From positions 96,001 through 160,000 of the forward strand of contig OZ253449.1 of the NCBI GenBank assembly GCA_965261345.1: DNA of 64,000 nucleotides, given 5' to 3'. The notes under the pieces are model-generated. The model was not told where the DNA came from and did no database searches. It was given only the letters and a program-made list of their open reading frames with translations. The DNA comes from Chloroflexota bacterium (lineage in GTDB: Bacteria; Chloroflexota; UBA11872; VXNJ01). Shown one piece after another: positions 742 through 48,479 of the stretch. Position numbers and translations under genes: made by a program. How positions within the stretch are numbered: the stretch's first letter is position 1; each line of letters opens with the position of its first letter.

Positions 742-1036
742 ATTTGCAAGTTGACCGTTTTTTCAATGTTCGAACGGCATTCACGGGCCGATCGAGCCGT
801 CGCCACCCTCCAACTAGTCGGCCCGAATCAAACCGGTTAGGGATGTGTGCACTGAGTCGGCCCGGGCAAACAAGGAGGTTAGCGACCGGGGTCACTATAG
901 TCAGATGGTCGGACGGCAAATGCGCGCGGCCAGGCTCAAAAATCAAACTCCTGAGGCCGCAGTTACCAAAAATTATTGCAATTATGTCGAGCGTGTACGT
1001 GGGTTGCGGCTCACCGACGTGCGCCCAACCGCTGGT

Positions 1037-1250
1037 TCAGCGGGTGTTGAAACCGTCAGGAGTTAATCCGGCTTGATGGATGATGCCGCGTAGCACCCCG
1101 GCGACGATCTAGCAGTGTCGCAGAACTATGGCGGTGCGGATCGAGTCAACGTCAGATTTGGCAAATTTAACGTGGTTGCCCTTTTGGTTGACCACTCGAA
1201 ATCAGGCGGATCGGAGTTCGCGGATGACTTGCCGATCAGTGAACTGCTCA
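1037..1250 (-). pseudogene. hicA: HicA mRNA interferase pseudogene
   Basis: TDRQVIRELRSA*FRVVNQKGNHVKFAK...TAIVLRHC*IVAGVLRGIIHQAGLTPDGF; two in-frame stops; directly downstream of hicB. Confidence 0.8.
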
Positions 1251-1454
1251 ACTGGCTTTGACCTCGACTTCTACTTCGTAAATCTGCGGGCGCGAAACGA
1301 CGGTTGGCGGTTCGAAATGAAGCTCGAGGGATTCTTTGAGGTTTTCAAGCGATTCTTCAACGGTGGTGCCTTGGCTGGCGACATCAACACCCAGCGCCTG
1401 CGCCACAAACCATTTGTTTTCTTGGCACACGCCGACGTAGAACTTTTGCTTCAT
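1248..1454 (-). CDS. hicB: HicB-family antitoxin
   Basis: 68 aa, WFVAQALGVDVASQGTTVEESLENLKESLELHFE motif. Confidence 0.85.
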   Translation of the reverse strand: MKQKFYVGVCQENKWFVAQALGVDVASQGTTVEESLENLKESLELHFEPPTVVSRPQIYEVEVEVKAS

Positions 1455-1459
1455 TGGCG

Positions 1460-1822
1460 CTACTCCAACACTGCCGGCGGTTCGGAAGGATCCGAGATTG
1501 CCAGCTCAAGCTGAGCGATCAATCCTGGCAAATCCTCCTGGACCGTACTCCAAACTACGTCCAAGTTGATATCGAAATAGGCGTGTACAAGTCGGTTCCG
1601 CATCCCGACTATCCGCTCCCACGGAATCTGCCGCAACTCCCACCGCGTAGGCTCTGTGACCCCAGTCGCCGCTTCACCGACGATTTCTATATCTTTGACC
1701 AACGCAAGCACAAGTTGGCGGTCACGATCAAGGGCTTGGCGAGGCCGATCCCGCGCGAAGGATCGGGCTTCGCGGGCTGCGTCCAGCATATGCCGCAATC
1801 GAATTTGGTCATGCGTGCGCAT
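1460..1822 (-). CDS. HepT/DUF86 HEPN ribonuclease toxin
   Basis: IEIVGEAA and IPWERIVGMRNRLVHAYFDINLDVVW (RX4HXY); overlaps the MNT stop. Confidence 0.9.
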   Translation of the reverse strand: MRTHDQIRLRHMLDAAREARSFARDRPRQALDRDRQLVLALVKDIEIVGEAATGVTEPTRWELRQIPWERIVGMRNRLVHAYFDINLDVVWSTVQEDLPGLIAQLELAISDPSEPPAVLE

Positions 1823-2516
1823 ACTGGACTTCAGCATCATCGAGAACTTGCTCGCGGAAGTAGGGACTCAGATCCTCAGGGGTTCGCAGGTCCACTTTGC
1901 GGCCGCCGAACAATCTCGACAAATCGATCTCGATGCCAGCTATTCCTAGCAGGCCCGGTACCCGACCGGGTTGGAACTCCACCAACACGTCGATGTCGCT
2001 TTCCGAGTGGAAATCGTCTCGCAATGCCGACCCGAATATCGCCAGCCGGCGTATCCCGTGCGCTTTGCAAAGCGATGCCAATTCCTTTTTTGCGATTGAC
2101 ACGTTGGAGGCCACTGACGACACGTTTTCCTTAACGGGATGATGGCCGTCAGCAATACTGTCCGGGGTAGGGCGGTCGCTTCTGCCAACTTTTGCATCCA
2201 ACACCGCGGGTTTTACCGATCGTTCAATCGCTTCGCCAGAGTTGATTTCCGCGGTACGCAATTCAAAGGCCTGCTGCAGATTCATCCAAAATTGCGCGGG
2301 CATCCCAAAATATCGGGCCAGCCTAAGGGCGGTGTCGGCGGTAACGCCCCTTTGACCATTCAAGATTGCGGTGATCCGATTCGCAGGAACCCCCAGGGCG
2401 GTGGCCAATGCGGTGGCCGACATCTCCAACTCGCGCAGTTCTTCGCCCAGTATTTCCCCTGGGTGGACTGGGCGCATCCCATTCTTGTAGGTCAATTCCG
2501 AAACCTCACTTGGCAC
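1809..2516 (-). CDS. HigA-like XRE antitoxin read in frame into an MNT nucleotidyltransferase (MNT alone probably 1809..2114)
   Basis: N-term MRPVHPGEILGEEL...TALRLARYFG..FWMNLQ (HigA); C-term IFGSALRDDF..SDIDVLVEF (GSX10DXD). Confidence 0.8.
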   Translation of the reverse strand: MPSEVSELTYKNGMRPVHPGEILGEELRELEMSATALATALGVPANRITAILNGQRGVTADTALRLARYFGMPAQFWMNLQQAFELRTAEINSGEAIERSVKPAVLDAKVGRSDRPTPDSIADGHHPVKENVSSVASNVSIAKKELASLCKAHGIRRLAIFGSALRDDFHSESDIDVLVEFQPGRVPGLLGIAGIEIDLSRLFGGRKVDLRTPEDLSPYFREQVLDDAEVQYAHA

Positions 2517-2845
2517 ATTCAGAGACTGCGATGCTTTCCGGATATGCCACCGCCATTCCGTCGGGTCCGGCCGACGGCGGACTTTATTCTAAGCATTATG
2601 TCTTACGTAACGGATAACTGCCAGTGGGCCCGTTTCCTCCAATCCAATCCTTTGCGCCAAGGGTTCGTAATTTATATTGACCCCATTTCGCCCGATGAAT
2701 TCCAGCGGACTATGGGGACAATTCGAGCCTTTGTAGGCTGTAGGTACCGATGATTATGGCTTGTGCCCGGGAACCGGCAAGAAACAGCGCGCTTCAAAAA
2801 CTGTCCCAAGACGGCCAGGTTCCACCACTCTCATCACGCCGTCAA

Positions 2846-4261
2846 TTACCCTGGTTGACGAATTCGGCCGCGCCGATTGCGCGAACGCGGCCGCTCGTTG
2901 GGGCTTGACTCGGCAGAGTTCCTTGCGCTCCAGGACCTATGGCGAAACCGAACTCCCAAGCGGCGAGCAATTTCCCGCCACTTTGGCCCATCGTCTTGTG
3001 TGACGAAGGTTACAGCCTTACCCGCTCGGCCCATCCGCCCGGTACGCCCCACCCGGTGCGTAAAAAGCTGTGCCGAATCGGGGAGGTCGAAGTTGATCAC
3101 CTGGCCAATCCCATCAAAATCCAAGCCGCGAGCGGCAACATTGGTGGCTAGCAGAATCGGCGTTTGGCCAGATCGGAAGTTGGCCATTACTCGCTCGCGC
3201 GCTCTTTGACTCAGGTTTCCCTGCAAGGCGCCGACCTGGTAACCCAGTTCGTCGAGTTTGCGGGCCAGCTTCTTAATGCCGTGCTTGGTCCGGCCAAACA
3301 CTATGAGCGACTCACCATCGCGCTCGTCCAGCAGAGTTTGCAGGGCGCTCAATTTTTGGTCACGACCAATCGTGTAGATGAAATGGGTTACGCTGGGTAA
3401 CGCTTGGAGATCTGCATCTACCCTGACTGTGGCTGGATTTTGGAGGTGCTTGGCCGCTGTTCCTGCCACCCAATCTGGCATGGTCGCAGAATAAAGCGCG
3501 GTCTGGCGGTCGGCTGGCGTGCGACTGAGAATCGCCTCTACATCGCGGGCAAATCCCTGGTCCAGCATCTCGTCGGCCTCGTCAAGCACGAAGAATCTGA
3601 CTGCCCGAAGGTCGAGCGTCCCTTGGCGGAGATGATCAAGCGTGCGGCCCGGGGTGCCGACCACGATCTGCGGTCTCCGTCTTAGGGCATTAAATTCCGG
3701 GCGCGCCGAGCGGCCCCCGTACAGCAGCGTCGAACGCAAACGGCGTGGGAGGGCAAACGTGTCAATGACGCTGGCAATTTGAATCGCGAGTTCCCGGGTG
3801 GGGGTGAGAACCAAAGCCTGCACCCCGCGCACGGATGGATCGCAGCACTCAGTTATGGGGAGTGCGAACGCCAAGGTCTTGCCGGATCCGGTTCGTGCCT
3901 GTGCGATGACGTCACGCCCGGCCAGTAACAGCGGAATCGCTTGTTCCTGGATGGGCGTGGGAATTGCAATTTCCATCGACTCAAGGACCGAGTGCGCGGA
4001 CGGGCTCAAACCCATCGCGGCGAACGTTGCCGCGGGTGCGGCACGACCGTTAACGGATGAAGCTGTATCGAATGCCTCAGGCGACGAAATGTTCTCCGGC
4101 GCTGCGCGGCGTAATGCAAAGCACTCCGCGCAGTAAACCGGGCGGCCCGGCCTCGGCCGGAACCGAACGGTCGTCGCGGTGCCGCAATCGGTGCAGACGA
4201 TGGATTGCCGGGATGAGCGCCCCGGCGAGCGAGGCCGCGTGGGGGCGGACACTGGGGACAT
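2846..4261 (-). CDS. DEAD-box RNA helicase with N-terminal CxxC-x17-CxxC zinc ribbon
   Basis: CTDC..RPVYCAEC; Q motif, ARTGSGKT, PTRELA, DEAD, SAT, HRVGRTGR. Confidence 0.95.
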   Translation of the reverse strand: MSPVSAPTRPRSPGRSSRQSIVCTDCGTATTVRFRPRPGRPVYCAECFALRRAAPENISSPEAFDTASSVNGRAAPAATFAAMGLSPSAHSVLESMEIAIPTPIQEQAIPLLLAGRDVIAQARTGSGKTLAFALPITECCDPSVRGVQALVLTPTRELAIQIASVIDTFALPRRLRSTLLYGGRSARPEFNALRRRPQIVVGTPGRTLDHLRQGTLDLRAVRFFVLDEADEMLDQGFARDVEAILSRTPADRQTALYSATMPDWVAGTAAKHLQNPATVRVDADLQALPSVTHFIYTIGRDQKLSALQTLLDERDGESLIVFGRTKHGIKKLARKLDELGYQVGALQGNLSQRARERVMANFRSGQTPILLATNVAARGLDFDGIGQVINFDLPDSAQLFTHRVGRTGRMGRAGKAVTFVTQDDGPKWREIARRLGVRFRHRSWSARNSAESSPNERPRSRNRRGRIRQPG

Positions 4262-4847
4262 CTAGAAGCTGCTTCCTAATTGCTTTGAATTTCATGAGTG
4301 ATCAAGCGCGGGGCGCGCGGGCGAAGGATCCAATGGGTGGGATCCAGTACTGATGCCCTTCGAAAACGTCGGCACCGATACGGGCGCGCTGCGATTGAAC
4401 TAACCGGCGAATGCCGGAGGACTTGACGCGGAATGTCACCAAGGCGGTTGCGATTGACAGTTACATCCCCACGCGGCGCAAGGTCGCGGTAGAGACGTCC
4501 AACGACTCTGCAAGCCACAGTTTCAGTCGCTATCGATGACGACGATGCGCGATCGCGGGCTACTTTGACCCAATGCGCAGTAACGAGGGGCTACGGCGCT
4601 AGGATTACTTCCGCTTATCAAGCCATATATGCATGCAGATTGTCGCAGTTTGAAGGCTTACGCGGGAGAACCTCTGTCACGGCGCCCGTTTGCCAACGCC
4701 GAGCAGCGATTCCAGCAACCCCTGCGATCAACGTCATTTGATTTGTCCGGTTCCAAAATCATCGGCGCGTACCAAGCCAAAGTAAACGGCGATGCCCAGG
4801 CAAGAAAAGAGCAGATCAGGGTCAGGAGCTTGTCTGAGCGATTGGAA

Positions 4848-5164
4848 TTGACGGCACCACTGTCCAGCAACGTCTCAACATCGTCCAGTCCCGGGATGCT
4901 ATGGCGCTCATGCAGCAATACCGCCGGCAGCTTCCCGGCATCGGCGATCAATGAGTCGTCGTCGAAGTCGACTTAAAGGCGCTTGGCGGCTAAGCGATGT
5001 TGACTTAACCAGTGCTCCCCAGCTCTGGGTCTTGTGGTTCTCGACCAACCGATTGCCCCAGTGATGAGAAAAACCTTTCTGCTTATTTGAAATCGTTCTG
5101 CTCAAAAAGATTTCGGTGGGTTGGCGTTGGATTGCAAACAATGATTATGTCTAGTATTCCCTGT
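4848..5164 (+). repeat. 317-bp direct repeat copy 1; decayed IS1380 left end/N-terminus (minus strand) plus a dif-like arm
   Basis: Identical to 9326..9642; minus-strand DFDDDSLIADAG..NRSDKLLTLI resembles AFDDHRLIANAG..NAGAKLQTLV of the IS1380 at 17.6 kb, and the leaders align. Confidence 0.8.
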
Positions 5165-5493
5165 CGTTCGCCACCGGCCCAACGCAAGCAGTTCATCCAC
5201 CGGATACCGGCTCATTCCCAGGTGATGTCATCCTGTCCGCCTCGTAGCTCGCCGCGCGGCATGCGCGCCGCAATTTCAGATCGACCAGAAGATTCCATTC
5301 ATCGCCATCGGTGCCGCCGGCAACTGCCCCGGACGCGAGTTGTCGGAAGCAATCGCCGACGACATCTCTATGTACAACTGCAAAGCAAGCGTCCGGTCGA
5401 CCGGCGCCGGACTACCGAAGATTTTTGCGGCAACAAAACTCGTGCAACTGCGCGGCGGATGCCGAATCAGATTTCCGCAACCGGTTGAGCCTG

Positions 5494-6783
5494 CTAGAAC
5501 CCTTTTTCAGCACACTGGCGATTGATTTCGTCAATGATTTCACATATATGAATCGATTCGGCGATTGTGAACTGAGGCATTTCCTTTAGTCCGGCAGCCA
5601 TGCAGCGGTGTACCGCCTGCGCCTGATAGGTGAAGCCGTGCTGGTTCCCGTGACCCCACGACCAGCCTTTGTAGGAAATCAATTTTTCACCGGTCCAGCG
5701 TGATCCCGACGGCTGGCCCCGATGGATCGGCGCAGGCGTGGGAACCGGGTACTCGAAGCGCTGTACTTGATTAAAGGCACCGCTAGAGGGATTCTGATCC
5801 TGGTTCCAGTGCGTTGGCCGCCAGTCACCAACCCACCCCCTGCTGGACGTATATTCCATCTCGGGCCTGCCTTCGGCTGCGCGATTGCCGCGACGCGGCG
5901 GACGCCCGGTGGCAATGGTCAACGCGGTTGGGTGATGCGCCGGGGATTCGACCGTGATCCGCCCATTGGTGCCCACAAATTGGGTCTCCTCTTTGAACCT
6001 GCCGGTCGACGAGGTAATCACGCCAATGCCTTTCTGCCCGGTGTATTGCAGAACGGCGGCGCTGGGCTGCGCGAGCGCAGTGCCGGCGAAGGAGGTACCT
6101 TGGCCGGATTCAACGCCAGAGTAATCGTGGGGTTGGGGTTTTCTCCCGGCCGCGGCGATAACCGGGAATTCACCCGCACCGAAGCCGGTGACTGCGGGAT
6201 TGAGCGCATAGACTCCATCCGCGTATTCCGATTGCACAACTTTCAATTCCCCGATATCGCCCCGCTCAAGTGCGGCCCTGGCGTGTTCGATGGCCGGAAA
6301 GAAGCGCAGCCACATCCCTTCCCAGCAAACCACACCGGCCTTCTCGGCGGCGGAATATGCTTCTTTTGCCTGTTCCGCAGTTTCAGTAAACGGCTTTTCA
6401 CACAATACGTTCTTACCGGCGGCGATCGCCATCATAAGGTCACGGTAGTGATCCCGGGTTTTGGAAGAGATGTAGACGATATCGACATTGGGGTCATTAC
6501 ACAGCGCTTCATAGGAGTCGTAGGCCGTAGGAATGCCATGAGCGTCGGCGTATGCCCGTGCCCGATCCATATCCCGGGCTGCATTGGCGACTACGGATGC
6601 TCCAGGCACATCCTGTAGTGATTTGACCCAGTCCGATGAAATCGTCGATGCGGTGATGATGCCCCAGCGAAGTTTGTGATGGATTCCATCTTCGTGGGTC
6701 AGTCCAAGACGGATGTCCATGGGGGTATTCATGGGAAACCCGTTGTACATGTACGGGTCCGCGTTGGCGATATCGATGTCCAT
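5494..6783 (-). CDS. Gfo/Idh/MocA family oxidoreductase
   Basis: LRWGII..., NVLCEKP, EGMWLRFFP; likely start ATG 6783. Confidence 0.9.
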   Translation of the reverse strand: MDIDIANADPYMYNGFPMNTPMDIRLGLTHEDGIHHKLRWGIITASTISSDWVKSLQDVPGASVVANAARDMDRARAYADAHGIPTAYDSYEALCNDPNVDIVYISSKTRDHYRDLMMAIAAGKNVLCEKPFTETAEQAKEAYSAAEKAGVVCWEGMWLRFFPAIEHARAALERGDIGELKVVQSEYADGVYALNPAVTGFGAGEFPVIAAAGRKPQPHDYSGVESGQGTSFAGTALAQPSAAVLQYTGQKGIGVITSSTGRFKEETQFVGTNGRITVESPAHHPTALTIATGRPPRRGNRAAEGRPEMEYTSSRGWVGDWRPTHWNQDQNPSSGAFNQVQRFEYPVPTPAPIHRGQPSGSRWTGEKLISYKGWSWGHGNQHGFTYQAQAVHRCMAAGLKEMPQFTIAESIHICEIIDEINRQCAEKGF

Positions 6784-6827
6784 GATGGCTTCTTTCAGTA
6801 GTTGGTGCAATTGCGAGAGTATTGCAC

Positions 6828-8903
6828 CTAGAAACCAGGCCGAAAAGCCCAAAACGCGCGTCGGGGCTCAAACAGATTAGCAATGACCTCGAAGACCTCC
6901 CTGAGGCCGCCAAACCGATTTAGGACACTCTGGATCGATATTTCGTGGGAATTCTGGGCCCATGCAACGATCGCGCCGGCGGCAACCGCATTTTTAAGAC
7001 CCCGCGCCAAATCCCGATTCGCAGGTCCTTCCATTACCGGCGCAGAAGCTACTTCCCGGCCTTCGGCGACCCCGTTCCGATTGCCCTCCATCGCCATCTG
7101 CGCCGCCTCCCGGCCGTTTGCGGCGGCCGCGGTCAGCCCGGCTTCCCGGCCCGGGTCGGTTCCCGAGGGTTTCCTTTTCCACGACTCCCCTTCGGCAAGC
7201 GTTAGGTTGGCCACCGTGGCCGCCATCAGCAGCTGGAACCCGGCAAGTTGCCTGCCAAAGAACCGCGACTGGCGCACGCCCAGCTGGCAGAGCCTGGCCA
7301 GGCGGTGCTCGACGCGGGTTCTAAGGCGCGCGATCTTTAAGCCTTCCTTACTGCGCTGGCGGATGCGGGCCTGCTGCAGCAGGCGTTCCTGGGGATGGAC
7401 GCTGATGCGGCGGTTGGGTTTGGTCGCAGAGCGTATGCAGGATGTCTTGAGTGGACAGGCCGAGCACTGCTCTTTAGCGAAGTGGAAGAGGCCGGCGCGT
7501 GTCTTGGCGCTGCGCCGGGAGCGCGAGCGGCGGTAATCGGAAGTTATCTGCCCGGCTGGGCAGGTGCAGGTTCCCTTTTCCAGATCGATGGCAAAGTCCT
7601 GCTTTACAAAGTAGCGGCTGGCTGGTTTACCCGGCGCCCTGGCGAAGAGGTCGTACCCGGCGTCGGCGAAGTCCTTGCGGGTGTCGCCAGCCCCGTAGGC
7701 GCAGTCGCCGATGACGATCTCGACTTTGGCGGCGGCGTTCTCTTCGGCCTCCCGCACCAGCGCCAGGGCGCCGCAGTTGTCGGGGGCGTTGCCCGGGATC
7801 ACGTCTACCGCGGTTACCAGGCCGGTTGACAAATCTACGGCGATGGCGGCCTTGTGGCCGGCAAAGCGGTTGGTCGAGCTCTTGCGTCCATGGCGCATCT
7901 GCGGATCGTGCGCCGATATGATCCGGTCGCGTCCGCCCCGGACGATCTCCACTTCCTCGCCATCTGCGCCGTCGGCCGAATCCCTGGCCGCGACACCCCT
8001 GTCTCTGACCGCCACCGGGGCGGGATCGACCTCGCCGGCGTCGGTTCCCGCCGGCAGCAGCAGCCGATCGCGGTCGTCGGGAACCGGTTTTGCCGGTTCC
8101 GCGGGGACGCGTTTTACGTCCTGGAGCAGGATCTGCGACAGCAGCTGCGAGCAGGCCAGGATCTTATCGGCGCGCTTATTGTCGGGAGCAGGGGATTCAA
8201 GCGCGCTGCGGGCCCTTGCCAGCAGCGAGTCGGCGTCTCTGACGATCCGCCCCAGGAACCGGCGGCGCTGTTTACGGTCCGGCCAGTCGATGGCGACAGC
8301 GCCCTTCAGGCTCTTGCCGGCATGCAGGTTGTAGCCGTGTTGGCGGGCCCACTCTTTGGGGTCTTGGCCATCCTGTTCGGCCAGGGCGCCGACCAGCAGG
8401 CGGCAGCCGTCCCCGATCAGGTTGTAGGCGTCCCGCACCGCGCCCCTGCCCAGGATGGCGGTGGTATCGATCGCCAGCTTCATGCTCTGGCCCTTGAAGA
8501 AGCCCTTTTTGCGGGCGTGCTGCAGGGAGCGGCGAAATATCCCCCGCGCCCTGCCGTGAACGATCAGCTGCGAGCGAAACAGCTGCAATGTGGACTTGGC
8601 GAACGCGCGTTCTTCCAGCTCGGTCCCCAGCGCCACCTTCCAGCGCAGGTCGTAGTCGGCCCGCTGCTTGGCCTCGTTGTCAGAGACCTTATCGTGGGCC
8701 TGCAGCAGGAGAACGGTGGCCAGCAGCGAGGGCGCCACGCTGGGGCGGCCGTTGTCGGCGCAGTAGAGATCGGCGAAATCTTCGTCTTTGAACAGCTCTC
8801 CCCGCATGCCCGCCAGGCGGCCGTAGAAGGTATCGCGTCCTACGTAGTCAAGGTGCAGGCCGTCGGTCTGGAAGAAGCCCTTTTGGGCATGGGTCCCCAG
8901 CAT
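6828..8903 (-). CDS. IS1182-family transposase
   Basis: YCADNGRPS, AIDTT, GDCAYG, CTCPAG, CSACPLK..C, RTRVEHRLARL. Confidence 0.9.
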   Translation of the reverse strand: MLGTHAQKGFFQTDGLHLDYVGRDTFYGRLAGMRGELFKDEDFADLYCADNGRPSVAPSLLATVLLLQAHDKVSDNEAKQRADYDLRWKVALGTELEERAFAKSTLQLFRSQLIVHGRARGIFRRSLQHARKKGFFKGQSMKLAIDTTAILGRGAVRDAYNLIGDGCRLLVGALAEQDGQDPKEWARQHGYNLHAGKSLKGAVAIDWPDRKQRRRFLGRIVRDADSLLARARSALESPAPDNKRADKILACSQLLSQILLQDVKRVPAEPAKPVPDDRDRLLLPAGTDAGEVDPAPVAVRDRGVAARDSADGADGEEVEIVRGGRDRIISAHDPQMRHGRKSSTNRFAGHKAAIAVDLSTGLVTAVDVIPGNAPDNCGALALVREAEENAAAKVEIVIGDCAYGAGDTRKDFADAGYDLFARAPGKPASRYFVKQDFAIDLEKGTCTCPAGQITSDYRRSRSRRSAKTRAGLFHFAKEQCSACPLKTSCIRSATKPNRRISVHPQERLLQQARIRQRSKEGLKIARLRTRVEHRLARLCQLGVRQSRFFGRQLAGFQLLMAATVANLTLAEGESWKRKPSGTDPGREAGLTAAAANGREAAQMAMEGNRNGVAEGREVASAPVMEGPANRDLARGLKNAVAAGAIVAWAQNSHEISIQSVLNRFGGLREVFEVIANLFEPRRAFWAFRPGF

Positions 8904-9025
8904 GTCTCCACCACCCGGCAATGCTATGTTTTTATCAATGGAAAGGCTCCGCAAGATGCCTGTTGATATTTTATATGTTTGATGACGGATTAGCCCTTTG
9001 TACAGGGGCTTTTCGGCCGGGCTTC
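6831..9025 (-). mobile_element. IS1182-family insertion sequence
   Basis: Terminal IRs gaaaccaggccgaaaagccc / gggcttttcggccgggcttc, each within a CTAG context. Confidence 0.85.
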
Positions 9026-9195: not shown

Positions 9196-9325
9196 TAAGC
9201 ACGCACGTTGGTCATTCTTGATCGATTGGCCGGGCGATTGCAATCCGTCTGTGGGCGGCAACGAATAAGGGCCTGTTGAAACAATCTCGACCTAGACAGG
9301 CCTGAATGCGGTTTCTACCATGGAG

Positions 9326-9642
9326 TTGACGGCACCACTGTCCAGCAACGTCTCAACATCGTCCAGTCCCGGGATGCTATGGCGCTCATGCAGCAATACC
9401 GCCGGCAGCTTCCCGGCATCGGCGATCAATGAGTCGTCGTCGAAGTCGACTTAAAGGCGCTTGGCGGCTAAGCGATGTTGACTTAACCAGTGCTCCCCAG
9501 CTCTGGGTCTTGTGGTTCTCGACCAACCGATTGCCCCAGTGATGAGAAAAACCTTTCTGCTTATTTGAAATCGTTCTGCTCAAAAAGATTTCGGTGGGTT
9601 GGCGTTGGATTGCAAACAATGATTATGTCTAGTATTCCCTGT
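9326..9642 (+). repeat. 317-bp direct repeat copy 2
   Basis: Identical to 4848..5164. Confidence 0.9.
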
Positions 9643-9668
9643 TGAACACAAACTCAATTACGTCAACT
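9641..9668 (+). other. dif-like XerC/XerD site
   Basis: gttgaacacaa-actcaa-ttacgtcaact (11-6-11). Confidence 0.55.
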
Positions 9669-9883: not shown

Positions 9884-10795
9884 TTACGGCAGAAATTCCC
9901 TGTTCACCTTGGCCACATAGGAGAAGGTCGGGTTTACGAACTGGGTGCAGCGGGCTTCCAACACTTGGCCCAGGAAGAGGTAGGCCTCGCCGCGCGTGAA
10001 ACCGTAGCTATCCTCGAGCCATAGCACCATTTCTGCTAAGGCCGTGCGGAAGGCGTCCTCGGCGGGCCTGGCCATCGCGGTAGTGATGATGTGGGTGTCG
10101 TTGATGATCCGGGGCCAGGTCATCGACTCCGATTTGGGCTCTAGGTCGCACGTTATCCTGACTCGGCCGCCGGCCTCGATTCCGCCGGCCCCGCATATCT
10201 CGCCATCGCCCTGGCGGGCGTGCATGTCGCCGATGTGGAGCAGGGCGCCAGGGACGGAAACTGGCAGGTGGACCGACGCTCCGGTGGTGATCTCCTGGAT
10301 GTCGAAATTGCCGCCCCACTCGCCGGCCCAGGCATTGGTCCAGCGGGAGTGCGCCTGCGCCACGCCTACCATTCCCAGCATCGGGGCGATTGGTATACGC
10401 AGCGAGTCGCTCCAGAGGATGTGGCCTTCCCGTATCTCCACCACCTTTTCCTGACGTCCTATCCCGGTACCGCCCAACCAACCCGGCATGGCGCCATTGG
10501 CGCCCCAGAACCGGGTGAAGCCTATTGGATCAACGTCAATCTCGCCTATGTGGACAACCAGGACTTGACCTGGCTGGGCGCCCTTAACGTAAATGCATCC
10601 GCTGGCGGGATTGCCGGCGCGCAGCTTGCGGTCCAGCTCGTTACGGTCGGGATGATCGTTTAGCCAGGGGCCACGGTTGAGCTGGGTCTCGACCTCGAAT
10701 TCTTCACCGGGTGCGACGTGCAGGGTCGGTTCGTTGTCCGGGCCGATTTCGAAGTACAAGACGTCCTTGGTAGCTTGCTGCATGGTCCACCTCAT
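9884..10795 (-). CDS. Acetamidase/formamidase family protein
   Basis: GCIYVKGAQPG, PMLGMVGVA, GGNFD, PGALLHIGDMHARQGDGEICG. Confidence 0.9.
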   Translation of the reverse strand: MRWTMQQATKDVLYFEIGPDNEPTLHVAPGEEFEVETQLNRGPWLNDHPDRNELDRKLRAGNPASGCIYVKGAQPGQVLVVHIGEIDVDPIGFTRFWGANGAMPGWLGGTGIGRQEKVVEIREGHILWSDSLRIPIAPMLGMVGVAQAHSRWTNAWAGEWGGNFDIQEITTGASVHLPVSVPGALLHIGDMHARQGDGEICGAGGIEAGGRVRITCDLEPKSESMTWPRIINDTHIITTAMARPAEDAFRTALAEMVLWLEDSYGFTRGEAYLFLGQVLEARCTQFVNPTFSYVAKVNREFLP

Positions 10796-10967: not shown

Positions 10968-10995
10968 ATTTTCTATATTCGCGATTATGTCGAGC
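10968..10995 (+). other. dif-like XerC/XerD site
   Basis: attttctatat-tcgcga-ttatgtcgagc. Confidence 0.55.
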
Positions 10996-19776: not shown

Positions 19777-19777
19777 A

Positions 19778-31763: not shown

Positions 31764-32147
31764 ATGCGAGTGACTGCAAATTTGACGGAATTGATTCGAA
31801 ACGCTCCCTGGCGAGAGGCAATCACCTACCGTGACACCTGGCCCCACGAATATGTGTTGACGGAGAAAGACGGCCAACAGGCGCTCTTGGAAGCCGTTTG
31901 CCAGCGGTTCCGCGCCGGAGAGGGTGTGTCCGGCCGATTCTTCCGCATGCAGAACACGTACCTGTTCATTGGTGACTACAAGTACTGGTTGATGACCCAT
32001 TGGGACAAGATCGAACCAGGAATCAATTACGTCCTAAACCGCGCGCTACTTTACCGGGACCGCAGGGACTTCGTGATCCAGCCAGGTGACACCGGACGGC
32101 CGGAGGACTATCCCACCTGTCCCGCTCACCCGAGTTCACCTGATTGA
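31764..32147 (+). CDS. Hypothetical protein
   Basis: WREAITYRDTWPHEY..YLFIGDYKYW..LNRA. Confidence 0.65.
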   Translation: MRVTANLTELIRNAPWREAITYRDTWPHEYVLTEKDGQQALLEAVCQRFRAGEGVSGRFFRMQNTYLFIGDYKYWLMTHWDKIEPGINYVLNRALLYRDRRDFVIQPGDTGRPEDYPTCPAHPSSPD

Positions 32148-35026: not shown

Positions 35027-35422
35027 TCAGCGCGAAGTTCGAACCCACGCGATGCCATCGACGTGTTCGAAGTGCTGATCGGCGGAAACCAAATCGGCGC
35101 CCGTTTCCATGGCATGGGCCGCTACCCATACATCGTTGGTAGGAATCGGTCGCCCCTTTGCCTTCAACGCAATCATGATTCGCGAATAGCGATCAGCGGT
35201 TACCGCACCCACCGGTACGAACGAAACGAATGGACGTTGCAGGAACGACCGAAGCTCGGCAAGGTTTTGTTCAAAGCGTCGCCCTCGACGAAAGCCATAT
35301 AGTTGCTCACCTACAACGATTGCTGAAAGCAGCACCTCTTCTGCAGTCGATACCAAGTCTCGGATTTCACCATTTCCACGCATGAACCCGGAATATGCAT
35401 TGGAATCGAGCAGAAGCCTCAC
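35027..35422 (-). CDS. vapC: VapC PIN-domain toxin
   Basis: LLDSNAY, KGRPIPTNDVWVAAHA, SADQHF. Confidence 0.9.
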   Translation of the reverse strand: MRLLLDSNAYSGFMRGNGEIRDLVSTAEEVLLSAIVVGEQLYGFRRGRRFEQNLAELRSFLQRPFVSFVPVGAVTADRYSRIMIALKAKGRPIPTNDVWVAAHAMETGADLVSADQHFEHVDGIAWVRTSR

Positions 35423-35685
35423 TTCCAGGCACCTTCGTCCACCGTCTCGAAATCCTCAAGGGCGGTGTCGAATCTCTCTGCTTCCTCCTGGCTCCAAACT
35501 CCGAAAAGGTCGTCTAAAGCAGTGCCGATGGCGTTGGGGTTTGCCTGGGCCGTGTCGGCAATACCGGCGCCTTTCTTGAGCAGCTTCAAGGCGGCCTTAT
35601 TGAGCGAGATCCCTTCCCGCTTAGCAAGCTGGCGGAGAATGGCGTCAACTTCATCATCCAAACCCCTGATGGTAAGTTGATTGAT
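35419..35685 (-). CDS. FitA/VapB-like RHH antitoxin (start uncertain)
   Basis: NQLTIRGLDDEV..LAKREGISLN; overlaps vapC start. Confidence 0.75.
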   Translation of the reverse strand: MNQLTIRGLDDEVDAILRQLAKREGISLNKAALKLLKKGAGIADTAQANPNAIGTALDDLFGVWSQEEAERFDTALEDFETVDEGAWK

Positions 35686-39868: not shown

Positions 39869-41800
39869 TTCACGGTAGGAACACCGGTTGCCCGATGCCC
39901 CCCGTACAGATCCCGGCGTGCGCGTTAACGCACCGGGCTCCTAGCTTGAGTATCTAACGGCAAAGCGCTGGGCGGGCCATGGGTGGCGGATTTGGACGGG
40001 CGGCCAGAGTTGGTCGCAAAGCTGGCTGATGCGCTCCCAGGTGGTGCGATCTTTGTCCGAGCGACGCTGCAGGGTGCGTTTCCAATGCCATTGCAGCCGT
40101 TGGCGGAATCGACAAAGGGACGGATAACTGGTGGGGACGGCGTAATAGTTGAGCCATCCGTTCAGCACCATCCCGAGCCATTGCCCGGTCTGCATCGGAT
40201 CATCGTGCATGCGCATACGCAGCTTCTCTTTGATCGCCTTCAGGGTGCGTCGTACTCGCTTGGCGATGGGCTTGCGTCCCAGTTTGAAGCCGCCGCTGCG
40301 GGTTCTTGAGCAGTAGTGCGTTAGGCCGAGGAAGTCAAAAGTCTCCGGACGGCTGTCGTTACGCTGGCGGCGATTCTCGATCGCGTATCTGCCGAACTCG
40401 ATCAGGCGGGTCTTGTGGGCTGCAAGCTCTAATCCGTACTCTTCTAGCCTGTCTCGCAAATCCTTTGCAAATCTGACCGCATCGCTGCGGTACTCAAATC
40501 CCAGGACGAAGTCATCGGCATACCTGACGATGTAGACCTCGCCGCTGGCCCTTTTGGGTCGCCATTCCTTGGCAAACCATGAGTCCAGGACTTTGTGCAG
40601 GTACACGTTGGCAAGCAGCGGCGATATCGGCGCCCCTTGCGGTGTTCCCTGCACGCTGTCGGATAGTTCTCCGGCTTCCATTACTCCGGTGCTCAGCCAT
40701 TTGCGGATTAGGCGCAGGACGCGGTTGTCTCCGATTCGCTCTCCCAGGAACGAGATGAGTCGCTCGCGGTCGAGATGGTCGAAGAAGCCTTTTATGTCGG
40801 CGTCAAGAATCCAGTTGACTTTTCTCCGTTCGATGGCGTAGGCCAGGGCGTCCAGCGCGTCGTGCGCTGATCTTTTTGGCCGGAACCCGTATGCGAACCC
40901 GGCGAACTCCGATTCATAGATCGGGTCAAGGATCTGTTGACACACCGCCCGCTGCAGGATCTTGTCCTCTATGGATGCGATTCCAAGCGCTCGCTTCCCG
41001 CCGTCCGGTTTGGGTATCGCTACCCGCAGGACGGGGGTCGCTCGGTATGCTCCTTTGTGCACGCGGTCTTTAAGGTCGAGAAGTTTCTCTTCCAGGTTTT
41101 CCTCGTACATCCTCCACGTGATCCCGTCGGCGCCGGGAGCGGCATTGGGTTTTAGCCCGTAGAACGCATCCCTTAGCGCGTCAAGGTCTATGTGGTGTAA
41201 GAGCGCGGTGAGTTTTCCCTCTGGGTTCTCTTTGGCGTGTTGCCGTACGCGTTCGGCTCCGGGTGACACGGGAACCCACCCCTGGGTGTAGTCCGTGCCG
41301 GTGCCTGGCGCGTTCCTCTTGCTTGCGGCCCTTTCCTCCGGCGGCTCCGCCGGGGTTTTACGCCCCATTGTTCGCCGCCTTCGCAGGTACTATGGCCGCA
41401 TCAGACTTCTGCACATCGTGCATCATCGGATTGCGAAACTCCTTCCTTCCCGATGCGGCCCCGGATCTGCGAGTGAACCGGGGTAATGCGCAGATCTCCC
41501 AGTTCCCGGCCCGGGACTTACGTACGTACATGAGTTCTTTGACACCGTCGAGCCCGGCTGACGGCTGGCCATCTATTGCCGCCGCCGGTGTTGCCTTCGA
41601 CCAGAATCACGGTCTCGGCGCTCGGGACAAACCCGATGTTTCGGTGCTCCATAGCTCTGTCCGCACGCTCCGCTGCCGACGCTTCACCGACCGTCTCGCG
41701 ACGGCCTGCGCACGGCTCGCGGGCTGATGTGGGCTGGCTCTCGCCCTTCATCCCGGGAGACTTTCACTCCTTGTCCTGGTACCAGTTGGACTGGCTGTTC
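39869..41800 (-). mobile_element. Group II intron copy 4, in IS3 orfA
   Basis: Removal restores GAA CAA GTC A|TC AAC AAG (EQVINK, versus EQIINK in the intact IS3). Confidence 0.92.
39941..41368 (-). CDS. ltrA: Group II intron reverse transcriptase/maturase
   Basis: YADD; N-terminal two thirds identical to copies 1 and 2. Confidence 0.95.
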   Translation of the reverse strand: MGRKTPAEPPEERAASKRNAPGTGTDYTQGWVPVSPGAERVRQHAKENPEGKLTALLHHIDLDALRDAFYGLKPNAAPGADGITWRMYEENLEEKLLDLKDRVHKGAYRATPVLRVAIPKPDGGKRALGIASIEDKILQRAVCQQILDPIYESEFAGFAYGFRPKRSAHDALDALAYAIERRKVNWILDADIKGFFDHLDRERLISFLGERIGDNRVLRLIRKWLSTGVMEAGELSDSVQGTPQGAPISPLLANVYLHKVLDSWFAKEWRPKRASGEVYIVRYADDFVLGFEYRSDAVRFAKDLRDRLEEYGLELAAHKTRLIEFGRYAIENRRQRNDSRPETFDFLGLTHYCSRTRSGGFKLGRKPIAKRVRRTLKAIKEKLRMRMHDDPMQTGQWLGMVLNGWLNYYAVPTSYPSLCRFRQRLQWHWKRTLQRRSDKDRTTWERISQLCDQLWPPVQIRHPWPAQRFAVRYSS

Positions 41801-42103
41801 TGACTTGTTCGGGCGAGTACTTTCGCTTCGCCATTGCTGTCCCTTTTCGTTGGAACCAGATTATTCACATTCCCTCTGGTACCAATGAGGCAATTGTCTT
41901 GATTGTCAATTCCGGCAGAGGTGGGGTCAGAGGGGTCCAGGAGAAAGGGGAGGATAGATCCAGCGCCCCGACCGCGGTTCATAGTGACCGCAGCCCGATC
42001 GACAGGCGATAACCGGATGCGTAATCGCCGCAATAGCCCGATCCCGGGCATGGCTTCGCCAGGGACCTTGCCCGCAAGAGCGATCGGACCTGCCCGGCGT
42101 TCA

Positions 42104-43969: not shown

Positions 43970-44406
43970 CCATCCCGGACCAGAGTCCGGGTACAGCACC
44001 GCAGCCGCCGGTCGCCGCCTACGAGAAACTGCGCCGCCAGGCGCTCGCTCCCGACGGGGGCTCGGACTGGCGCAGCCTGGCGATCATCCGCCGACGAGGG
44101 ATCCCGGCCTGGCTGGCCCGGCGTCCCGCATCCACGGCCCCGGGGCCATCGTCGCCGCACCGGGCCGGATCGGCCGAACTGCTCGACATCCTGCTGGGAT
44201 TGGCGCTGGGATCGGAGTCCGGCGGTGATCGATCAGATGCAACGCAGGGTGACCGCGCAGCATCTTGCCCGCCGGGCCTTCCTGTACGTGCGGCAGTCAA
44301 CCCTGCGGCAGGTGATGGAGAACCGGGAGAGCACCCGCCGCCAGTACGATCTGCGCCGCCGGGCGCGTTCGCTGGGCTGGGCGCCGGAGCAGATCTGCGT
44401 CATTGA
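43960..44406 (+). CDS. Small domain in the -1 frame, probably reached by frameshifting
   Basis: AAYEKLRRQAL..SLAIIRRRGIPAWL; no start codon before this motif. Confidence 0.55.
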   Translation, partial: KKLTIPDQSPGTAPQPPVAAYEKLRRQALAPDGGSDWRSLAIIRRRGIPAWLARRPASTAPGPSSPHRAGSAELLDILLGLALGSESGGDRSDATQGDRAASCPPGLPVRAAVNPAAGDGEPGEHPPPVRSAPPGAFAGLGAGADLRH

Positions 44407-46298
44407 CTCGGACCTGGGGCGGTCGGGAGCCGACTCGGACCGCAAGGGTTTCCAGCGTCTGGTCAGCGAGGTGTCGCTGGGGCGGGCCGGGATCGTGCTG
44501 GGCCTGGAGGTCTCGCGCCTGGCGCGCAACAACGCCGACTGGCATCGCCTGCTGGAGCTGTGCGCGCAGTCAGACACATTGATCCTGGACGAGGATGGGA
44601 TCTACAGCCCGGCCCAGTACAACGACCGCCTGCTGCTGGGCCTTAAAGGCACCATGTCGGAGGCCGAGCTGCACGTGATGAAGGCCCGCCTGCTGGGCGG
44701 AGTGCGGGCCAAGGCCGAGCGCGGCGAGCTGCGCTGCCGGCTGCCGGTGGGCTTTGTCTACGATCCGCTGGATAGGGTCGCGCTCGATCCCGACGCCCAG
44801 GTACGCGACACCCTAAAGACGTTCTTTACCGTCTACGAGCGCACCGGTTCGGCGCGGGCGGTGGTCGTCTACTTCAACACTCGCTCGCTCTCCTTCCCGA
44901 CGCGCCCCTACCACGGGCCGCGCAAGGACGAACTCTTCTGGGACCAGCTCACCCACGCGCGCGCCATCCTGGTCCTGTCACAACCCGCGCTACGCCGGAG
45001 CGTTCGCCTGGGGGCGCTATCGCACCCGGCGCGTCAACGGACGCGACCGCAGGGTACGGACGCCCCGGGACGAGTGGAGGGTGCTGATCACCGATCACCA
45101 CCCCGGTTACATCACCTGGGAGCGGTTCGAGCGCAACCAGGAGACGCTCTCGCGGTCGGCCCGTTCCTGGAGGCGCGAGGGCCAGGGCGGTCCGCCGCGC
45201 GAGGGATCGGCGCTCCTGCAGGGCATTGCCGTCTGCGGGAAATGCGGCAAACGCATGACGACCCACTATGACAATCGCGGCCGGCAACTCAGGCCCCGCT
45301 ATGTCTGTCGCCGCGAGGGCGTCGACAAGGGGCTGCCGGTCTGCCAGTCGGTTCCCGGGACGGCGATCGATGCGGCGGTCGCGGAGCTGGTGCTCGAACT
45401 TATGAATCCGCAGATGCTCGAGTTGGCGCTCTCGGCCCAGGACGAGCTGCGGCGGCGCATTCACGAGGCCGATGCATTGCGGGCCAAGGCGGTGCAGCGG
45501 CTGGAGGAGGAGGTCGACCTGGCGGGGCGACGCCATCGGATGGCCGATCCGTCCAACCGCCTGGTAGTCGATGTGCTCGAGGCCGAGTGGAACGCCTGCC
45601 TGCTGCGCCTGCAGGACGCGTCAGACGAGCAGGCCAGGCAGCGCGAGCAGGACCGGGCCGAGCTGAGCGAGCGCCAGCGCAAGCGGATCAAGGCCCTGGC
45701 GACCGACTTCCCGGCGCTCTGGAGCGACCCGGCAACCCCGGCAAAGCAGCGCAAGCGCATGCTTGGCCACCTGATCGCCGATGTGACCATCGTCAAGAGT
45801 GGGGAGATCGGCGTGGGGGTGCGCCTGCGCGGCGGCGCTGACCGCCGGTTTAAGCTTCCCCTGCCGCTGTCGGCAGCCGATCGGTACCGCACCGACCCGG
45901 GCGTGGTTGCCCTGCTCGATCAACTGCTGGCGGATCACTCCTATGCCGAGATCGCCGCGATCCTTAACCAGCGCGGCGTCCGCACCGGGCGTGGCAACGC
46001 CTTCAACGCCAGGAAGGTCTACGTGCTGCGGCGCGATCACGATCTCAAGACCAGGTATGAGCGACGGCGCGATCTGGGTCTGCTCACCGGCCGCGAGGTG
46101 GCGGCGCTCCTGGGTATAGCACCGACTATGGTCAACGGCCTGCGGCGGAGTGGACGCCTGCAGGGCGCAAACACCGGTGGCAACCGCTGGCTTTACGAGA
46201 GGCCCGCCAACCTGGGCGAACTACGATCAAGCATCCGCCGACCGGTCAGATCACCAGCCGACGGTTGCGAGTCGAACGAGGTGCAGTATGCAAGGTGA
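44225..46298 (+). CDS. Large serine recombinase (about 690 aa; apparent extra T near 44978)
   Basis: YVRQST, DLGRSG, EVSRLARN, L(H)NPRYAG, CGKCG..YVC zinc ribbon, C-terminal HTH. Confidence 0.9.
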
Positions 46299-46339
46299 TC
46301 CTTGGCAACGTCGACGCCCACATACACGTCCTCGCGCAT

Positions 46340-46528
46340 GCAAAACTCCCTATAGTTACTCTCAGCGCTACGCCCTTCCTTGCAAATTCGGGGTCACGCC
46401 CACCAAGGCAATTGTTCGGGGTCTATGCGCCGGGAGATCCGGGTGCGGCGAGCGTGCTTCATTACGGTCTCAACGGACCAAGGGGAATGCGTCCTACCGC
46501 ACCCGGGACTTCCCATTTGGAACATACA
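46340..46528 (-). ncRNA. Putative IS110 bridge RNA region
   Basis: Structured left non-coding end; guides cattcccct and taatgaag match the element's flanks. Confidence 0.65.
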
Positions 46529-46699
46529 AGGGGAGCAGGCCACGTTGACGGTGGCCGATTCGGGACATATTGACGATTGCGATGGCCGGTGCGCAGCGAG
46601 AAGACGCCCGTCGCGGGGCCCGATCGGCCCCAATCCGGGTCGATCAGCCGGGTCGGTGACGGATGCGGATCAGGTCCGTTCCGACACAAATTGGGCCGG

Positions 46700-47848
46700 T
46701 CATTGATCGGTGACCTCACAGGCCCCGCTTTTTGTGGATATGATTCCCGGGGGCCAATCGGCGTCTAAACGGAACACGCCGCGCACGCATCGCTCTCCAT
46801 CATGCACGACTAATTCGCTGTCTGTGCTCGATGCGTGCCCAAGTGCTCGCAGCTCTTTCGGCACCCGATCATCCACATATGGATTCAAGTAGAGGCAGGC
46901 GGTAGCGTTCGCAACCGTCCATGGGGCAAGATCGCGAAACATCATTAGGCCATTCAACTCACTGTTTCGAATCTGACCCTGATAGTTATCGAACCACAAT
47001 CCTTGCCCGGTTCGAACCATTCCCTCTGGGATCAGTTCGTCGTCTGCGCTGTTCTTCCTCAATCGCAAAGCCTCGGAACCAAACAATGCGGCGATTTCGG
47101 CCCGATTCAAATCGGCGCTCCGTATGTTGGCCGCAACAACCAGCGGATGCTGAAGGCCCGTGTACTTGTGCGACTTCTTGTCGACCGCTTTACGTAGGCC
47201 CATTTCGGGATTCCGATCGGACATTCGCGAAGGAGCAATTACGATCAGCGAACATGTGGATGATCTCGGCACCGCCTCCAATTCGAGGCGCCAGTTACCG
47301 TACTTGATATCGACCGCTATGCAGTGCTTGAAGCCGCTTGCCCAATTCACCGCTTGAGGATCGAGGCTCTTTAACCAATTGATGACGCTACGCCTGATGG
47401 GTTTCAAAGGCGGGGCCATTTTTAGCTCGCCTACAACTCCCACGTGCAATCCGATCCCTGCAGGTGCTTCTTGGCCCAGCTCATTGAGCGTGTTGAGTAC
47501 CGGCTTTTCAAGTGGCGGGGTCGCAAATGGTTGCTCCAGGTACGTAGCCTCAACAAAAGCGGTTCCGCTGGCACCCGAGACTAGGAAATCGGGCGCCGAA
47601 CCGCCGTCGAGTTTCGGCCCAACTTCCACCGACATCCCGAGGCGAAGAAACAATTCGTGCAAGAAGAGCTCAAAAAACGCGCCGTCGTGATTCGTGTCCC
47701 CGCTTCTAAATCGGGCGCGCAAATCACCTCGTGGATCCGGAAACCGCGCATACCAGCGCTCAAGCTCTTCGCGGACGGTCTGCATGTAGCGCTTTGGCGA
47801 ACGATTCACCCTCTCAAACCGCGAAACGGGTTCAATTTCGTCAATCAT
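46700..47848 (-). CDS. Putative PD-(D/E)XK-like nuclease
   Basis: GAFFELFLHELF..PDFLV..FVEAT pattern. Confidence 0.6.
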   Translation of the reverse strand: MIDEIEPVSRFERVNRSPKRYMQTVREELERWYARFPDPRGDLRARFRSGDTNHDGAFFELFLHELFLRLGMSVEVGPKLDGGSAPDFLVSGASGTAFVEATYLEQPFATPPLEKPVLNTLNELGQEAPAGIGLHVGVVGELKMAPPLKPIRRSVINWLKSLDPQAVNWASGFKHCIAVDIKYGNWRLELEAVPRSSTCSLIVIAPSRMSDRNPEMGLRKAVDKKSHKYTGLQHPLVVAANIRSADLNRAEIAALFGSEALRLRKNSADDELIPEGMVRTGQGLWFDNYQGQIRNSELNGLMMFRDLAPWTVANATACLYLNPYVDDRVPKELRALGHASSTDSELVVHDGERCVRGVFRLDADWPPGIISTKSGACEVTDQ

Positions 47849-48451
47849 TTCGGTGCAATCGAGGCGGTCGAATAGATGGCGGGCGTTATTGATTCGAAGG
47901 CGCCTTTCAATTGGTGCGGACGATAGCAAGCCTAACGCCGGTTACACGAATATCGTGTGGAATCATCGGCTTTTTCGTGGCTGAAATGGTGATGGACGAT
48001 CTTGCAATTCGACGGGGGCCACGCCCGAATATTGATTCACCAAATCTCGCGACATCATCGTGATACTCGCCAGTGGACCTCGACGGTCAACACCTGGAAG
48101 TGACTGAAGGCAATCACGCATCGAATCTGCGACCAGATTCCTCAAAACGATTAAGTCCTATGGCAAATTTGGGTAGATTTAATTTGCGGTATCGAACCAT
48201 TGGATTTCTCGCGCAATATCTCCTGGTCGGGAGCGCGCAGGTTGCTACATGATTTCCGCTGCTGCTTACCGACGCCTATTGAAGGTTCGATCGCACATTT
48301 GCGGCCGACACCATACCAATGAATCTTGCGGCTCAAATCGGGCGGCGGGCAGCGTTAGCGACCTGGACGTCAAGTCGAGGTCGTGGAAGGGCATTCCCGG
48401 CGACGACATGGCCGTGTTGCGCTTTGGGCGCACGGGTGTGAACGTTGGCAG

Positions 48452-48479
48452 ATTGACGATAATAGGAGTTAAGTCTACG
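48452..48479 (+). other. dif-like XerC/XerD site
   Basis: attgacgataa-taggag-ttaagtctacg. Confidence 0.55.

Follow-up and report, generated by a model that had tools for sequence, protein, structure and literature searches.

Between the genes of a 64,000-nucleotide stretch from a Chloroflexota bacterium (GenBank assembly GCA_965261345.1, contig OZ253449.1, positions 96,001-160,000 of the forward strand; the whole stretch is called the window here) lies a row of 28-bp motifs that look like dif, the target of the XerC/XerD dimer-resolution machinery. Are these motifs recombination sites, and have they moved the toxin-antitoxin (TA), defence and other small modules that lie between them? The source genome (G000), three complete genomes of the same genus (G002, G003 and G006) and a further relative (G005) were compared. 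The window is a slice of a far larger, mirror-symmetric and genus-wide structure around dif, and it is quite likely that its motifs are Xer-type recombination sites that reassort modules. Any particular recombination pathway is less probable than this general statement.

Dif-like sites of the window

The first-pass annotation of the window had listed 13 motifs, each composed of two 11-nt arms around a 6-nt spacer (11-6-11). All of them (at 965, 2579, 5128, 9606, 9641, 10968, 23740, 25317, 25766, 27651, 30448, 47925 and 48452) carry the letters given for them, and 11 to 12 are credible as dif-like, with arms that match the organism's own dif, introduced below. The motif listed as inverted, at 47925-47952 on the minus strand, is not supported: by manual count its arms hold about 12 mismatches, which is the level of chance, and it is missing from both the genome-wide and the window match lists. 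The sites are listed here with mismatches counted per arm against the arms of the G000 dif, left arm first.

965-992, plus strand: dif-like site, ACCAAAAATTA-TTGCAA-TTATGTCGAGC, 5 + 3 mismatches
2579-2606, plus strand: half-site, right arm TTATGTCTTAC with 2 mismatches, left arm unrecognisable
5128-5155, plus strand: half-site, TGGATTGCAAA-CAATGA-TTATGTCTAGT, right arm with 1 mismatch; a homologous site exists in G003
9606-9633, plus strand: copy of the preceding half-site, identical to 5128-5155, inside a 322-nt repeat
9641-9668, plus strand: dif-like site, GTTGAACACAA-ACTCAA-TTACGTCAACT, 4 + 3 mismatches
10968-10995, plus strand: dif-like site, ATTTTCTATAT-TCGCGA-TTATGTCGAGC, 5 + 3 mismatches
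23740-23767, plus strand: dif-like site, ATTTGAACTAA-TAGGGG-TTATGTCGAAC, 3 + 2 mismatches
25317-25344, plus strand: dif-like site, ATTTGTCATAG-TGAGTA-TTATGACTACT, 3 + 2 mismatches
25766-25793, plus strand: dif-like site, AATGAAGCTCA-TAGGGA-TTACGTCTAGT, 6 + 2 mismatches
27651-27672, plus strand: interrupted dif-like site, GTTTTTCATAA-TCGCAA-TTATG, with TCTTGC after the intron at 29597-29602
30448-30475, plus strand: dif-like site, GTTCGACCTAA-TCGCCA-TTATGTCTTGT, 3 + 2 mismatches
48452-48479, plus strand: dif-like site, ATTGACGATAA-TAGGAG-TTAAGTCTACG, 4 + 3 mismatches

The co-orientation described earlier for the window holds, and the spacer groups TCGCNA and TAGGGN are genuine and recur in relatives. 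The site at 27651 is indeed split after its TTATG, by a group II intron (27673-29596) behind which the remaining TCTTGC resumes at 29597. The half-site found at both 5128 and 9606 is part of a 322-nt direct repeat (4843-5165 and 9321-9643, 99.7% identity) that flanks an oxidoreductase gene and an insertion sequence (IS); in the second copy of this repeat, the dif-like site at 9641 starts 7 nt past the half-site.

The candidate dif and the replication terminus

The source genome is a single contig of 2,393,548 bp with a GC content of 61.6%. Its dnaA gene lies at 1,188,163, and the cumulative GC skew has its minimum at 1.18 Mb and its maximum at 2.36 Mb; the record therefore begins at the terminus. 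At 1555-1582, 10 kb off the point opposite dnaA and close to the skew maximum, is the sequence ATTAGACATAA-TCATTA-TTATGTCTAAT, an 11-6-11 motif with perfectly palindromic arms. It occurs in a single copy, with 0-1 mismatch, in all three complete congeners. Its core, ACATAA-N6-TTATGT, is present in five of six other members of the genus and in none of 50 genomes from other genera of the order. On these sequence grounds, the candidate at 1555-1582 is taken as the true dif. The window accordingly spans a region 96-160 kb distant from it.

Two further features accompany dif among the relatives. A two-armed secondary site with the spacer TTACCA is kept in four species (G000 2355775; G003 1696124; G006 214314; G005 C5:23529), 39-56 kb from dif wherever dif was located. 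In G006, the dif spacer is reversed relative to its flanks, as judged in part from the position of this conserved TTACCA site.

Genome-wide excess and polarity of the arms

Every position of the genome was scored against both dif arms in the 11-6-11 arrangement, with three order-3 Markov genomes as controls. At a limit of seven arm mismatches, 36 sites were found in G000 (3, 2 and 4 in the controls). The motif stands well above background and is clustered rather than uniform: the 36 sites group at 55-218 kb, which includes the window, across dif at 2.33-2.375 Mb, and at 1.295-1.34 Mb. Taken alone, the window gives a weak test, suggestive at most: it holds nine matches to the right arm TTATGTCTAAT with at most two mismatches (eight on the plus strand, one on the minus), against 4.4 +/- 2.4 in 100 shuffled versions, five of which reach nine.

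Across the first 300 kb of the genome, right-arm matches with at most two mismatches number 34 on the plus strand and 8 on the minus strand. Within 200 kb on either side of dif in four genomes, the left side holds 42 left-arm versus 16 right-arm matches at this threshold, and the right side 6 versus 58; allowing one mismatch at most, the figures are 11 versus 1 and 0 versus 18. In sum, 105 arm matches show the expected polarity; a further 25 are of opposite polarity, six of them the other arm of two-armed sites. The better-conserved arm hence points away from dif on both sides and in four species. This distal arm reads TTATGTC[T/G]A.[T/C] and is still conserved out to 200 kb from dif; the dif-proximal arm is degenerate, and conservation drops outside the 28-bp unit. 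Chance was considered as the source of the motifs and rejected on the genome-wide excess, the strand bias and the polarity in four genomes.

Spacers fall into recurrent classes (TCGCMA, TAGGGR, TAATGA, TGAGTA, TGGTAA and TCAGTA), which are the same in the relatives. Among the 105 polar matches, the most frequent spacers are TCGCCA (7), TAATGA (6), TCAGTA (5), TCGCAA (5), CAATGA (4), TGGTAA (4) and TAGGGG (3); the first base is T in 58 and the last base A in 63. Weight matrices built from seeded sites or from relatives were dominated by the arm used for selection, and were replaced by mismatch counts against the independently defined dif. No separate, XerC-type consensus for the degenerate arm was found, the selection of sites being circular in this respect.

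Outside the arrays, too, the core TTATGTC keeps its polarity about dif (45 copies in the array orientation versus 16) and ranks first in this respect among 210 7-mers of the same composition; TTATGTCT shows a polarity of 9 versus 0 there. Most of the outside copies fall in coding DNA with no second arm next to them, and three or four belong to intron copies.

Homology breakpoints inside the sites

Several modules are duplicated in G000, and homology between the copies breaks at sites. A 3.8-kb module (genome 51338-55152 and 91810-95646, 97.7% identity) is bounded by sites at both ends, from one spacer to the next left arm or spacer, with unrelated neighbours around the two copies. In a second pair of 0.97 kb (75918-76882 and 166312-167282, 90%), homology breaks at sites at both ends as well. 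Two further duplications have a site at one end only: the copies behind the window sites 965 and 10968 begin together at the spacer or right arm, and those of the DUF2188-DUF4238 module (window 25845-27672 and genome 189140-190967, 99.9%) end in the same site and then continue into differing right arms.

The same modules cross species boundaries. The 3.8-kb and 0.97-kb modules are found in G003 at 94% and 97% identity, mirror-inverted across dif, with neighbours other than those in G000 (a third pair for the larger one) and again with breaks in sites. The window module at 29607-30469 is present in G003 at 91%, with homology that stops after the TTATG of site 30448; in the G003 copy of this site, left arm, spacer and TTATG are common and the sequences then diverge. 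Modules common to G000 and G003 are 90-98% identical against a median of 74.8% over high-scoring segment pairs (HSPs) of at least 500 nt, and therefore moved recently. G000 and G006 are too diverged for breakpoints to be mapped: their HSPs have a median identity of 72.6%, and none reaches 88%.

Exchange at a site is also seen where flanks have been re-paired. Site 1610079 of G002 is a hybrid that combines two G000 sites exactly. To the left it has the flank and arm of 69884 (opposite strand); the spacer and what lies to the right of it, arm and flank, are those of 2379025, and the switch lies in the spacer. One TAATGA-class site occurs with all four pairings of its flanks, a with b in G003, a with g and d with b in G000, and d with g in G002. 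The spacers of recombinant joints equal those of the putative parents, themselves present-day sequences, or differ from them by one base (CCCCTA versus CCTCTA; TAATGA versus CAATGA). The informative cases conflict, or are ambiguous, over the side of the spacer at which strands are exchanged. Public reads were available as assembled contigs, of which those of runs X1, X3 and X4 come from one sample, probably the source. Run X5 adds a 1660-nt contig that matches only 30459-32006; the match sets in at the first spacer base of site 30448 and leaves 31 and 69 letters unmatched at the contig ends. Since contigs also break at repeats, this break at the site is suggestive at most.

These comparisons agree with the expectation of the first-pass annotation that breakpoints between relatives would coincide with the motifs: the duplicated and inter-species copies described here begin or end inside the sites. 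Homology that starts and stops there is, at the level of sequence comparison, the signature of site-specific recombination. It also bears on the idea that the motif serves protein binding or polarity instead of recombination, for example as the operator of a helix-turn-helix (HTH) antitoxin, a promoter element or a motif that orients FtsK, like the FtsK-orienting polar sequences (KOPS). Many modules do encode HTH proteins, and the polarity of TTATGTC outside the arrays, mostly in coding DNA, would suit a KOPS-like function. Yet neither an operator nor an orienting motif explains breakpoints inside 28 bp in many independent comparisons, the sites separate modules of unrelated content, and spacer classes and a second arm are unexpected for KOPS; this explanation is hardly credible.

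Candidate recombinases

No tyrosine recombinase is encoded in the window, according to Pfam annotation of its open reading frames (ORFs) and a PF00589 search of the genome, as had been noted before. The xerC and xerD genes, which the first-pass annotation had left to be located, appear to lie elsewhere in G000: PF00589 matches two ORFs only, both on the minus strand. The one at genome 723702-724613 fits the NCBIfam XerD model best (210 bits) and the one at 2124295-2125302 the XerC model (143 bits), in each case under the equivalog cut-off. The integron-integrase models reach 58-64 bits with these ORFs, far from their cut-offs of at least 265. G002 and G003 have two PF00589 matches each and G006 has three. 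G000 also encodes an FtsK with a gamma domain; DUF3653, the family of XafT-like activators, was not found in this genome. The similarity between the right arm and the XerD arm claimed earlier stands up, in that the conserved arm agrees at 9 of 11 positions with the XerD-binding arm TTATGTTAAAT of Acinetobacter pdif sites, as given in Table 1 of PMC13141974.

The sites might be genuine and yet be worked by another enzyme, for instance a serine recombinase or one not recognised as such. G000 has four genes with a Resolvase domain, and action by Xer is itself presumed. One of the four is in the window, within a high-GC stretch, but it is broken into two overlapping ORFs, one with the Resolvase domain (44225-45271) and one with a zinc ribbon and the Recombinase domain (45081-46298); three intact copies of 696 aa are found elsewhere (genome 34669, 38811 and 1056222). 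In sites of serine recombinases the crossover takes place at a 2-bp core, and mimicry of dif is not expected of them. The sites described here reproduce the organism's dif in both arms and in their 11-6-11 layout, and dif is the centre about which the arrays are polar in four species. A non-Xer enzyme is thus very unlikely. The proposal of a chromosomal, integron-like array built by the host Xer proteins stands as regards dif-derived sites, crossovers inside them and a genome with only two Xer-like recombinases; catalysis by Xer is presumed, and the term integron-like holds as an analogy only.

A model for module reassortment

These findings fit a model in which a large array of dozens of small modules flanks dif on both sides at the terminus. 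Each module is bounded by dif-derived 28-bp sites: it begins with the spacer and right arm of a first site and runs up to the left arm of the following one. Host XerD-like and XerC-like proteins would bind the secondary sites, and strand exchange would take place in the spacer or at its edge, between sites of equal spacer class. Insertion, excision, duplication, inversion and exchange of modules, also across species, would be the outcome, and unlike spacers at adjacent sites would keep the array from collapsing. The arrays may have been seeded by integration at dif and grown later at secondary sites. We infer Xer as the catalyst, the governing of partner choice by spacer class, and this order of seeding and growth.

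Several observations weigh against this reading. Palindromic dif arms are unusual for a site that is shared by two recombinases, XerC and XerD. The four serine recombinase genes of G000, one of them in the window (44225-45271), leave another candidate catalyst. Unselected comparisons between species give a weak test: HSP ends fall between -20 and +29 of a site centre in 14 of 127 cases, against 35 of 523 random windows, and, for HSPs of at least 85% identity, within 15 nt of a site in 6 of 23 against 5 of 73. A simple inversion between G000 2379025 and 69884 was considered for the hybrid site of G002, and the reciprocal junction was not found within the +/-200 kb of G002 examined. No site-to-site joint appears in the read data, which are assembled contigs and unable to show rare junctions. 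Adjacent sites usually carry different spacers, and a module is therefore not expected to be excised through a complete Xer reaction of the two sites that bound it. Around dif itself, a 24-kb block is common to G000 and G002 at 96.4% identity and hydantoinase-type genes adjoin dif in synteny in all four species. This flanking DNA is conserved between species and shows no recent integration at the primary dif, apart from a stretch of about 2 kb that differs in G006. Finally, 67 of the 105 polar arm matches have a second arm with at least seven mismatches; many of these one-armed matches may be dead scars or chance hits.

Scars of this kind could be all there is. The sites would then be inactive fossils of integrative mobile elements exploiting Xer (IMEX) that had once inserted at dif, later rearranged by IS elements, introns and homologous recombination and devoid of present mobility or function. 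The one-armed matches agree with such a history, as do the wealth of IS elements and group II introns in the region, the stability of dif-adjacent DNA between species and the lack of junction heterogeneity, as far as assembled contigs can reveal it. It does not sit well with duplicates at 99.9% and 97.7% identity that terminate in sites, nor with modules shared with G003 at 90-98% over a background of 75% that do the same. The four-way reassortment and the hybrid site point to reciprocal exchange at the site and not to IS ends, and conservation of the distal arm persists over 200 kb on the way out from dif. Fossil scars alone are an unlikely explanation, and Xer-type sites that reassort modules remain the preferred one.

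A bolder proposal, for which doubt slightly outweighs belief, is an integrase-less 'Xer integron'. Housekeeping Xer proteins would maintain mirror-polar arrays that run from dif over at least a tenth of the chromosome, capturing, duplicating and inverting modules for TA, defence and metabolism and passing them from species to species. Spacer classes would serve as heterospecific addresses, and sites of this type may also invert the specificity domain of a Type ISP restriction-modification gene, described below. Independently of this bolder proposal, a chromosomal, polar array around dif in so distant a phylum, with crossovers in its sites and exchange across species, would show that the universal dimer-resolution machinery can act as a general gene-capture system without a dedicated integrase. 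Testable models would follow for the stabilisation of arrays by spacer heterology, for the pile-up of accessory and defence genes at replication termini, and for the working of a perfectly palindromic dif with two Xer paralogues.

Content of the modules and neighbouring elements

Modules were annotated from ORFs and Pfam families (60 window ORFs scanned) because a codon-model gene caller missed genes of the low-GC islands. The assignments are as follows, from Pfam unless stated otherwise.

993-2578, minus strand: module with a HepT-like RNase (1460-1840), an HTH-nucleotidyltransferase (1809-2516) and a small DUF7387-like ORF (1248-1454)
2846-4261, minus strand: DEAD-box helicase with a zinc finger
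5494-8954, minus strand: GFO/IDH/MocA oxidoreductase (5494-6852), then a DDE transposase of an IS (6828-8954)
9884-10795, minus strand: acetamidase/formamidase-like gene
23768-25316, both strands: module with HTH_3 (23885-24214, minus), DUF4160 (24378-24614, plus) and HTH_3 (24618-25121, plus)
25794-27650, plus strand: module with DUF2188 (26129-26374) and DUF4238 (26636-27553)
27673-29596, plus strand: degenerate group II intron with a reverse transcriptase ORF (28195-28953), from RVT_1, RF02005, RF00029 and mapped ends
29603-30447, minus strand: module with a pair of small ORFs, 29688-30059 and 30023-30349, of which the latter weakly resembles Gp49/HigB (22 bits against a cut-off of 23.9)

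The first-pass annotation had the sites bracket TA and defence modules, which is right in part. HepT with its HTH-nucleotidyltransferase and the HTH_3 genes do lie between sites, and the DEAD-box helicase, the oxidoreductase and the formamidase-like gene are site-bounded likewise. The formamidase-like gene (9884-10795) has a paralogue of 89.6% identity left of dif, at genome 2385153-2386127. Both strands are used, within single modules as well as from one module to the next, and many small window ORFs have no Pfam family. Among the 60 ORFs scanned, Pfam identified no phage, plasmid-replication or conjugation family inside the site-bounded modules. The window also holds a PIN and ribbon-helix-helix TA pair (35027-35661), beside which no site was found.

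Between the modules lie IS256, IS110, IS3 and DDE elements and group II introns. The introns form one family with nine genomic copies of mapped ends, four of them in the window (27673-29596, 14171-16092, 17729-19657 and 39869-41801), and the '475-aa IS' that had been seen three times in the window is this family. The most diverged copy, with 73% identity to the rest, is the one inside site 27651; the others sit in different targets.

The site cluster at 1.295-1.34 Mb, outside the window, contains a TIR gene and a reverse transcriptase gene. In the same cluster, at 1330320-1337021, the final ~1.5 kb of the Type ISP restriction-modification gene recurs as an inverted copy 2 kb further downstream, with an IS3 element in between. 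The blocks of this inverted repeat are 100%, 92%, 91% and 76% identical, and the outer ends of the pair fall together with two inverted dif-like sites, 1331934 and 1336994, with the common spacer TGAGAT. Inversion of this segment may exchange the specificity domain.

Relation to known recombination systems

Xer-dependent shuffling of modules is documented almost only in Acinetobacter plasmids, and Xer-exploiting integration in few phages and islands. A literature search, whose coverage leaves out most subscription journals, returned no polar dif-centred cassette arrays, none in Chloroflexi and none beyond Acinetobacter and the known IMEX hosts. In the part of Kono et al. that is accessible, dif is predicted in three Dehalococcoides genomes only.

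The closest relatives of the arrays are the dif modules of Acinetobacter. In the accessible portions of two reports, these are delimited by pdif (XerC/XerD) sites on plasmids, flanking sites are inversely oriented, and C and D modules alternate; a 'chromosomal dif module island' is also described, in Acinetobacter sp. M10 (PMC13141974; PMC12907356). Judged by what these sources describe, both systems use 28-bp 11-6-11 look-alikes of the host dif with one arm better conserved, both set small modules in rows, often TA modules such as higBA, that have no integrase of their own, and in both the crossover lies within the site. In the Acinetobacter system, the 6-bp spacers of partner sites are the same or almost so; spacer identity may matter here too. 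Instead of the alternating C/D and D/C order reported there, the sites here are co-oriented on each side and mirrored across dif. The arrays here are also chromosomal, centred on the primary dif and hundreds of kb long, unlike those of Acinetobacter, and the host is a Chloroflexota genus rather than a gammaproteobacterium, with no plasmid partner known from the one-contig assembly.

IMEX, represented by CTXphi, VGJphi and TLCphi of Vibrio cholerae, the gonococcal genetic island and Legionella LME-1, are a second point of reference, as far as the available text of the sources goes (PMC9226527, PMC6744903, 10.64898/2026.06.12.731946, PMC5357621, 10.1101/2021.09.12.459815). According to the same excerpts, they likewise rely on host Xer, presumed here, in place of an element-borne integrase, leave beside dif a dif-like site with one degenerate arm and can form tandem arrays there. 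The polarity of the present arrays is what serial integration at dif would give. In those descriptions, however, IMEX are phages, satellites and large islands with replication or transfer genes, whereas the modules scanned here with Pfam measure 0.4-4 kb and have no such genes. The arrays differ further in that the primary dif shows no recent integration, XafT/DUF3653 was not found in G000, and the sites are far more numerous and spread on both sides.

Sedentary chromosomal integrons and clusters of attC sites lacking integron-integrases (CALINs) are cassette arrays of the IntI/attC system, long rows of mostly one- or two-gene cassettes that are rich in TA genes. Their cassettes are mostly co-oriented and promoterless, and attC sites are longer, imperfect palindromes with paired core sites. 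Unlike integrons, the genome described here has no IntI (its two PF00589 ORFs are both Xer-like) and no attI or Pc platform, and its array is anchored on dif, with genes on both strands. Nothing of the attC type was seen around the sites, at which conservation is confined to the 28-bp dif-like unit with arms that are those of dif; no dedicated attC model was run. The likeness is one of arrangement: a chromosomal row of small, TA-rich cassettes, a site split between neighbouring cassettes, and cassettes that are duplicated and shared between species. By this analogy, the cell's own Xer enzymes probably shuffle genes around the terminus much as integrons do.

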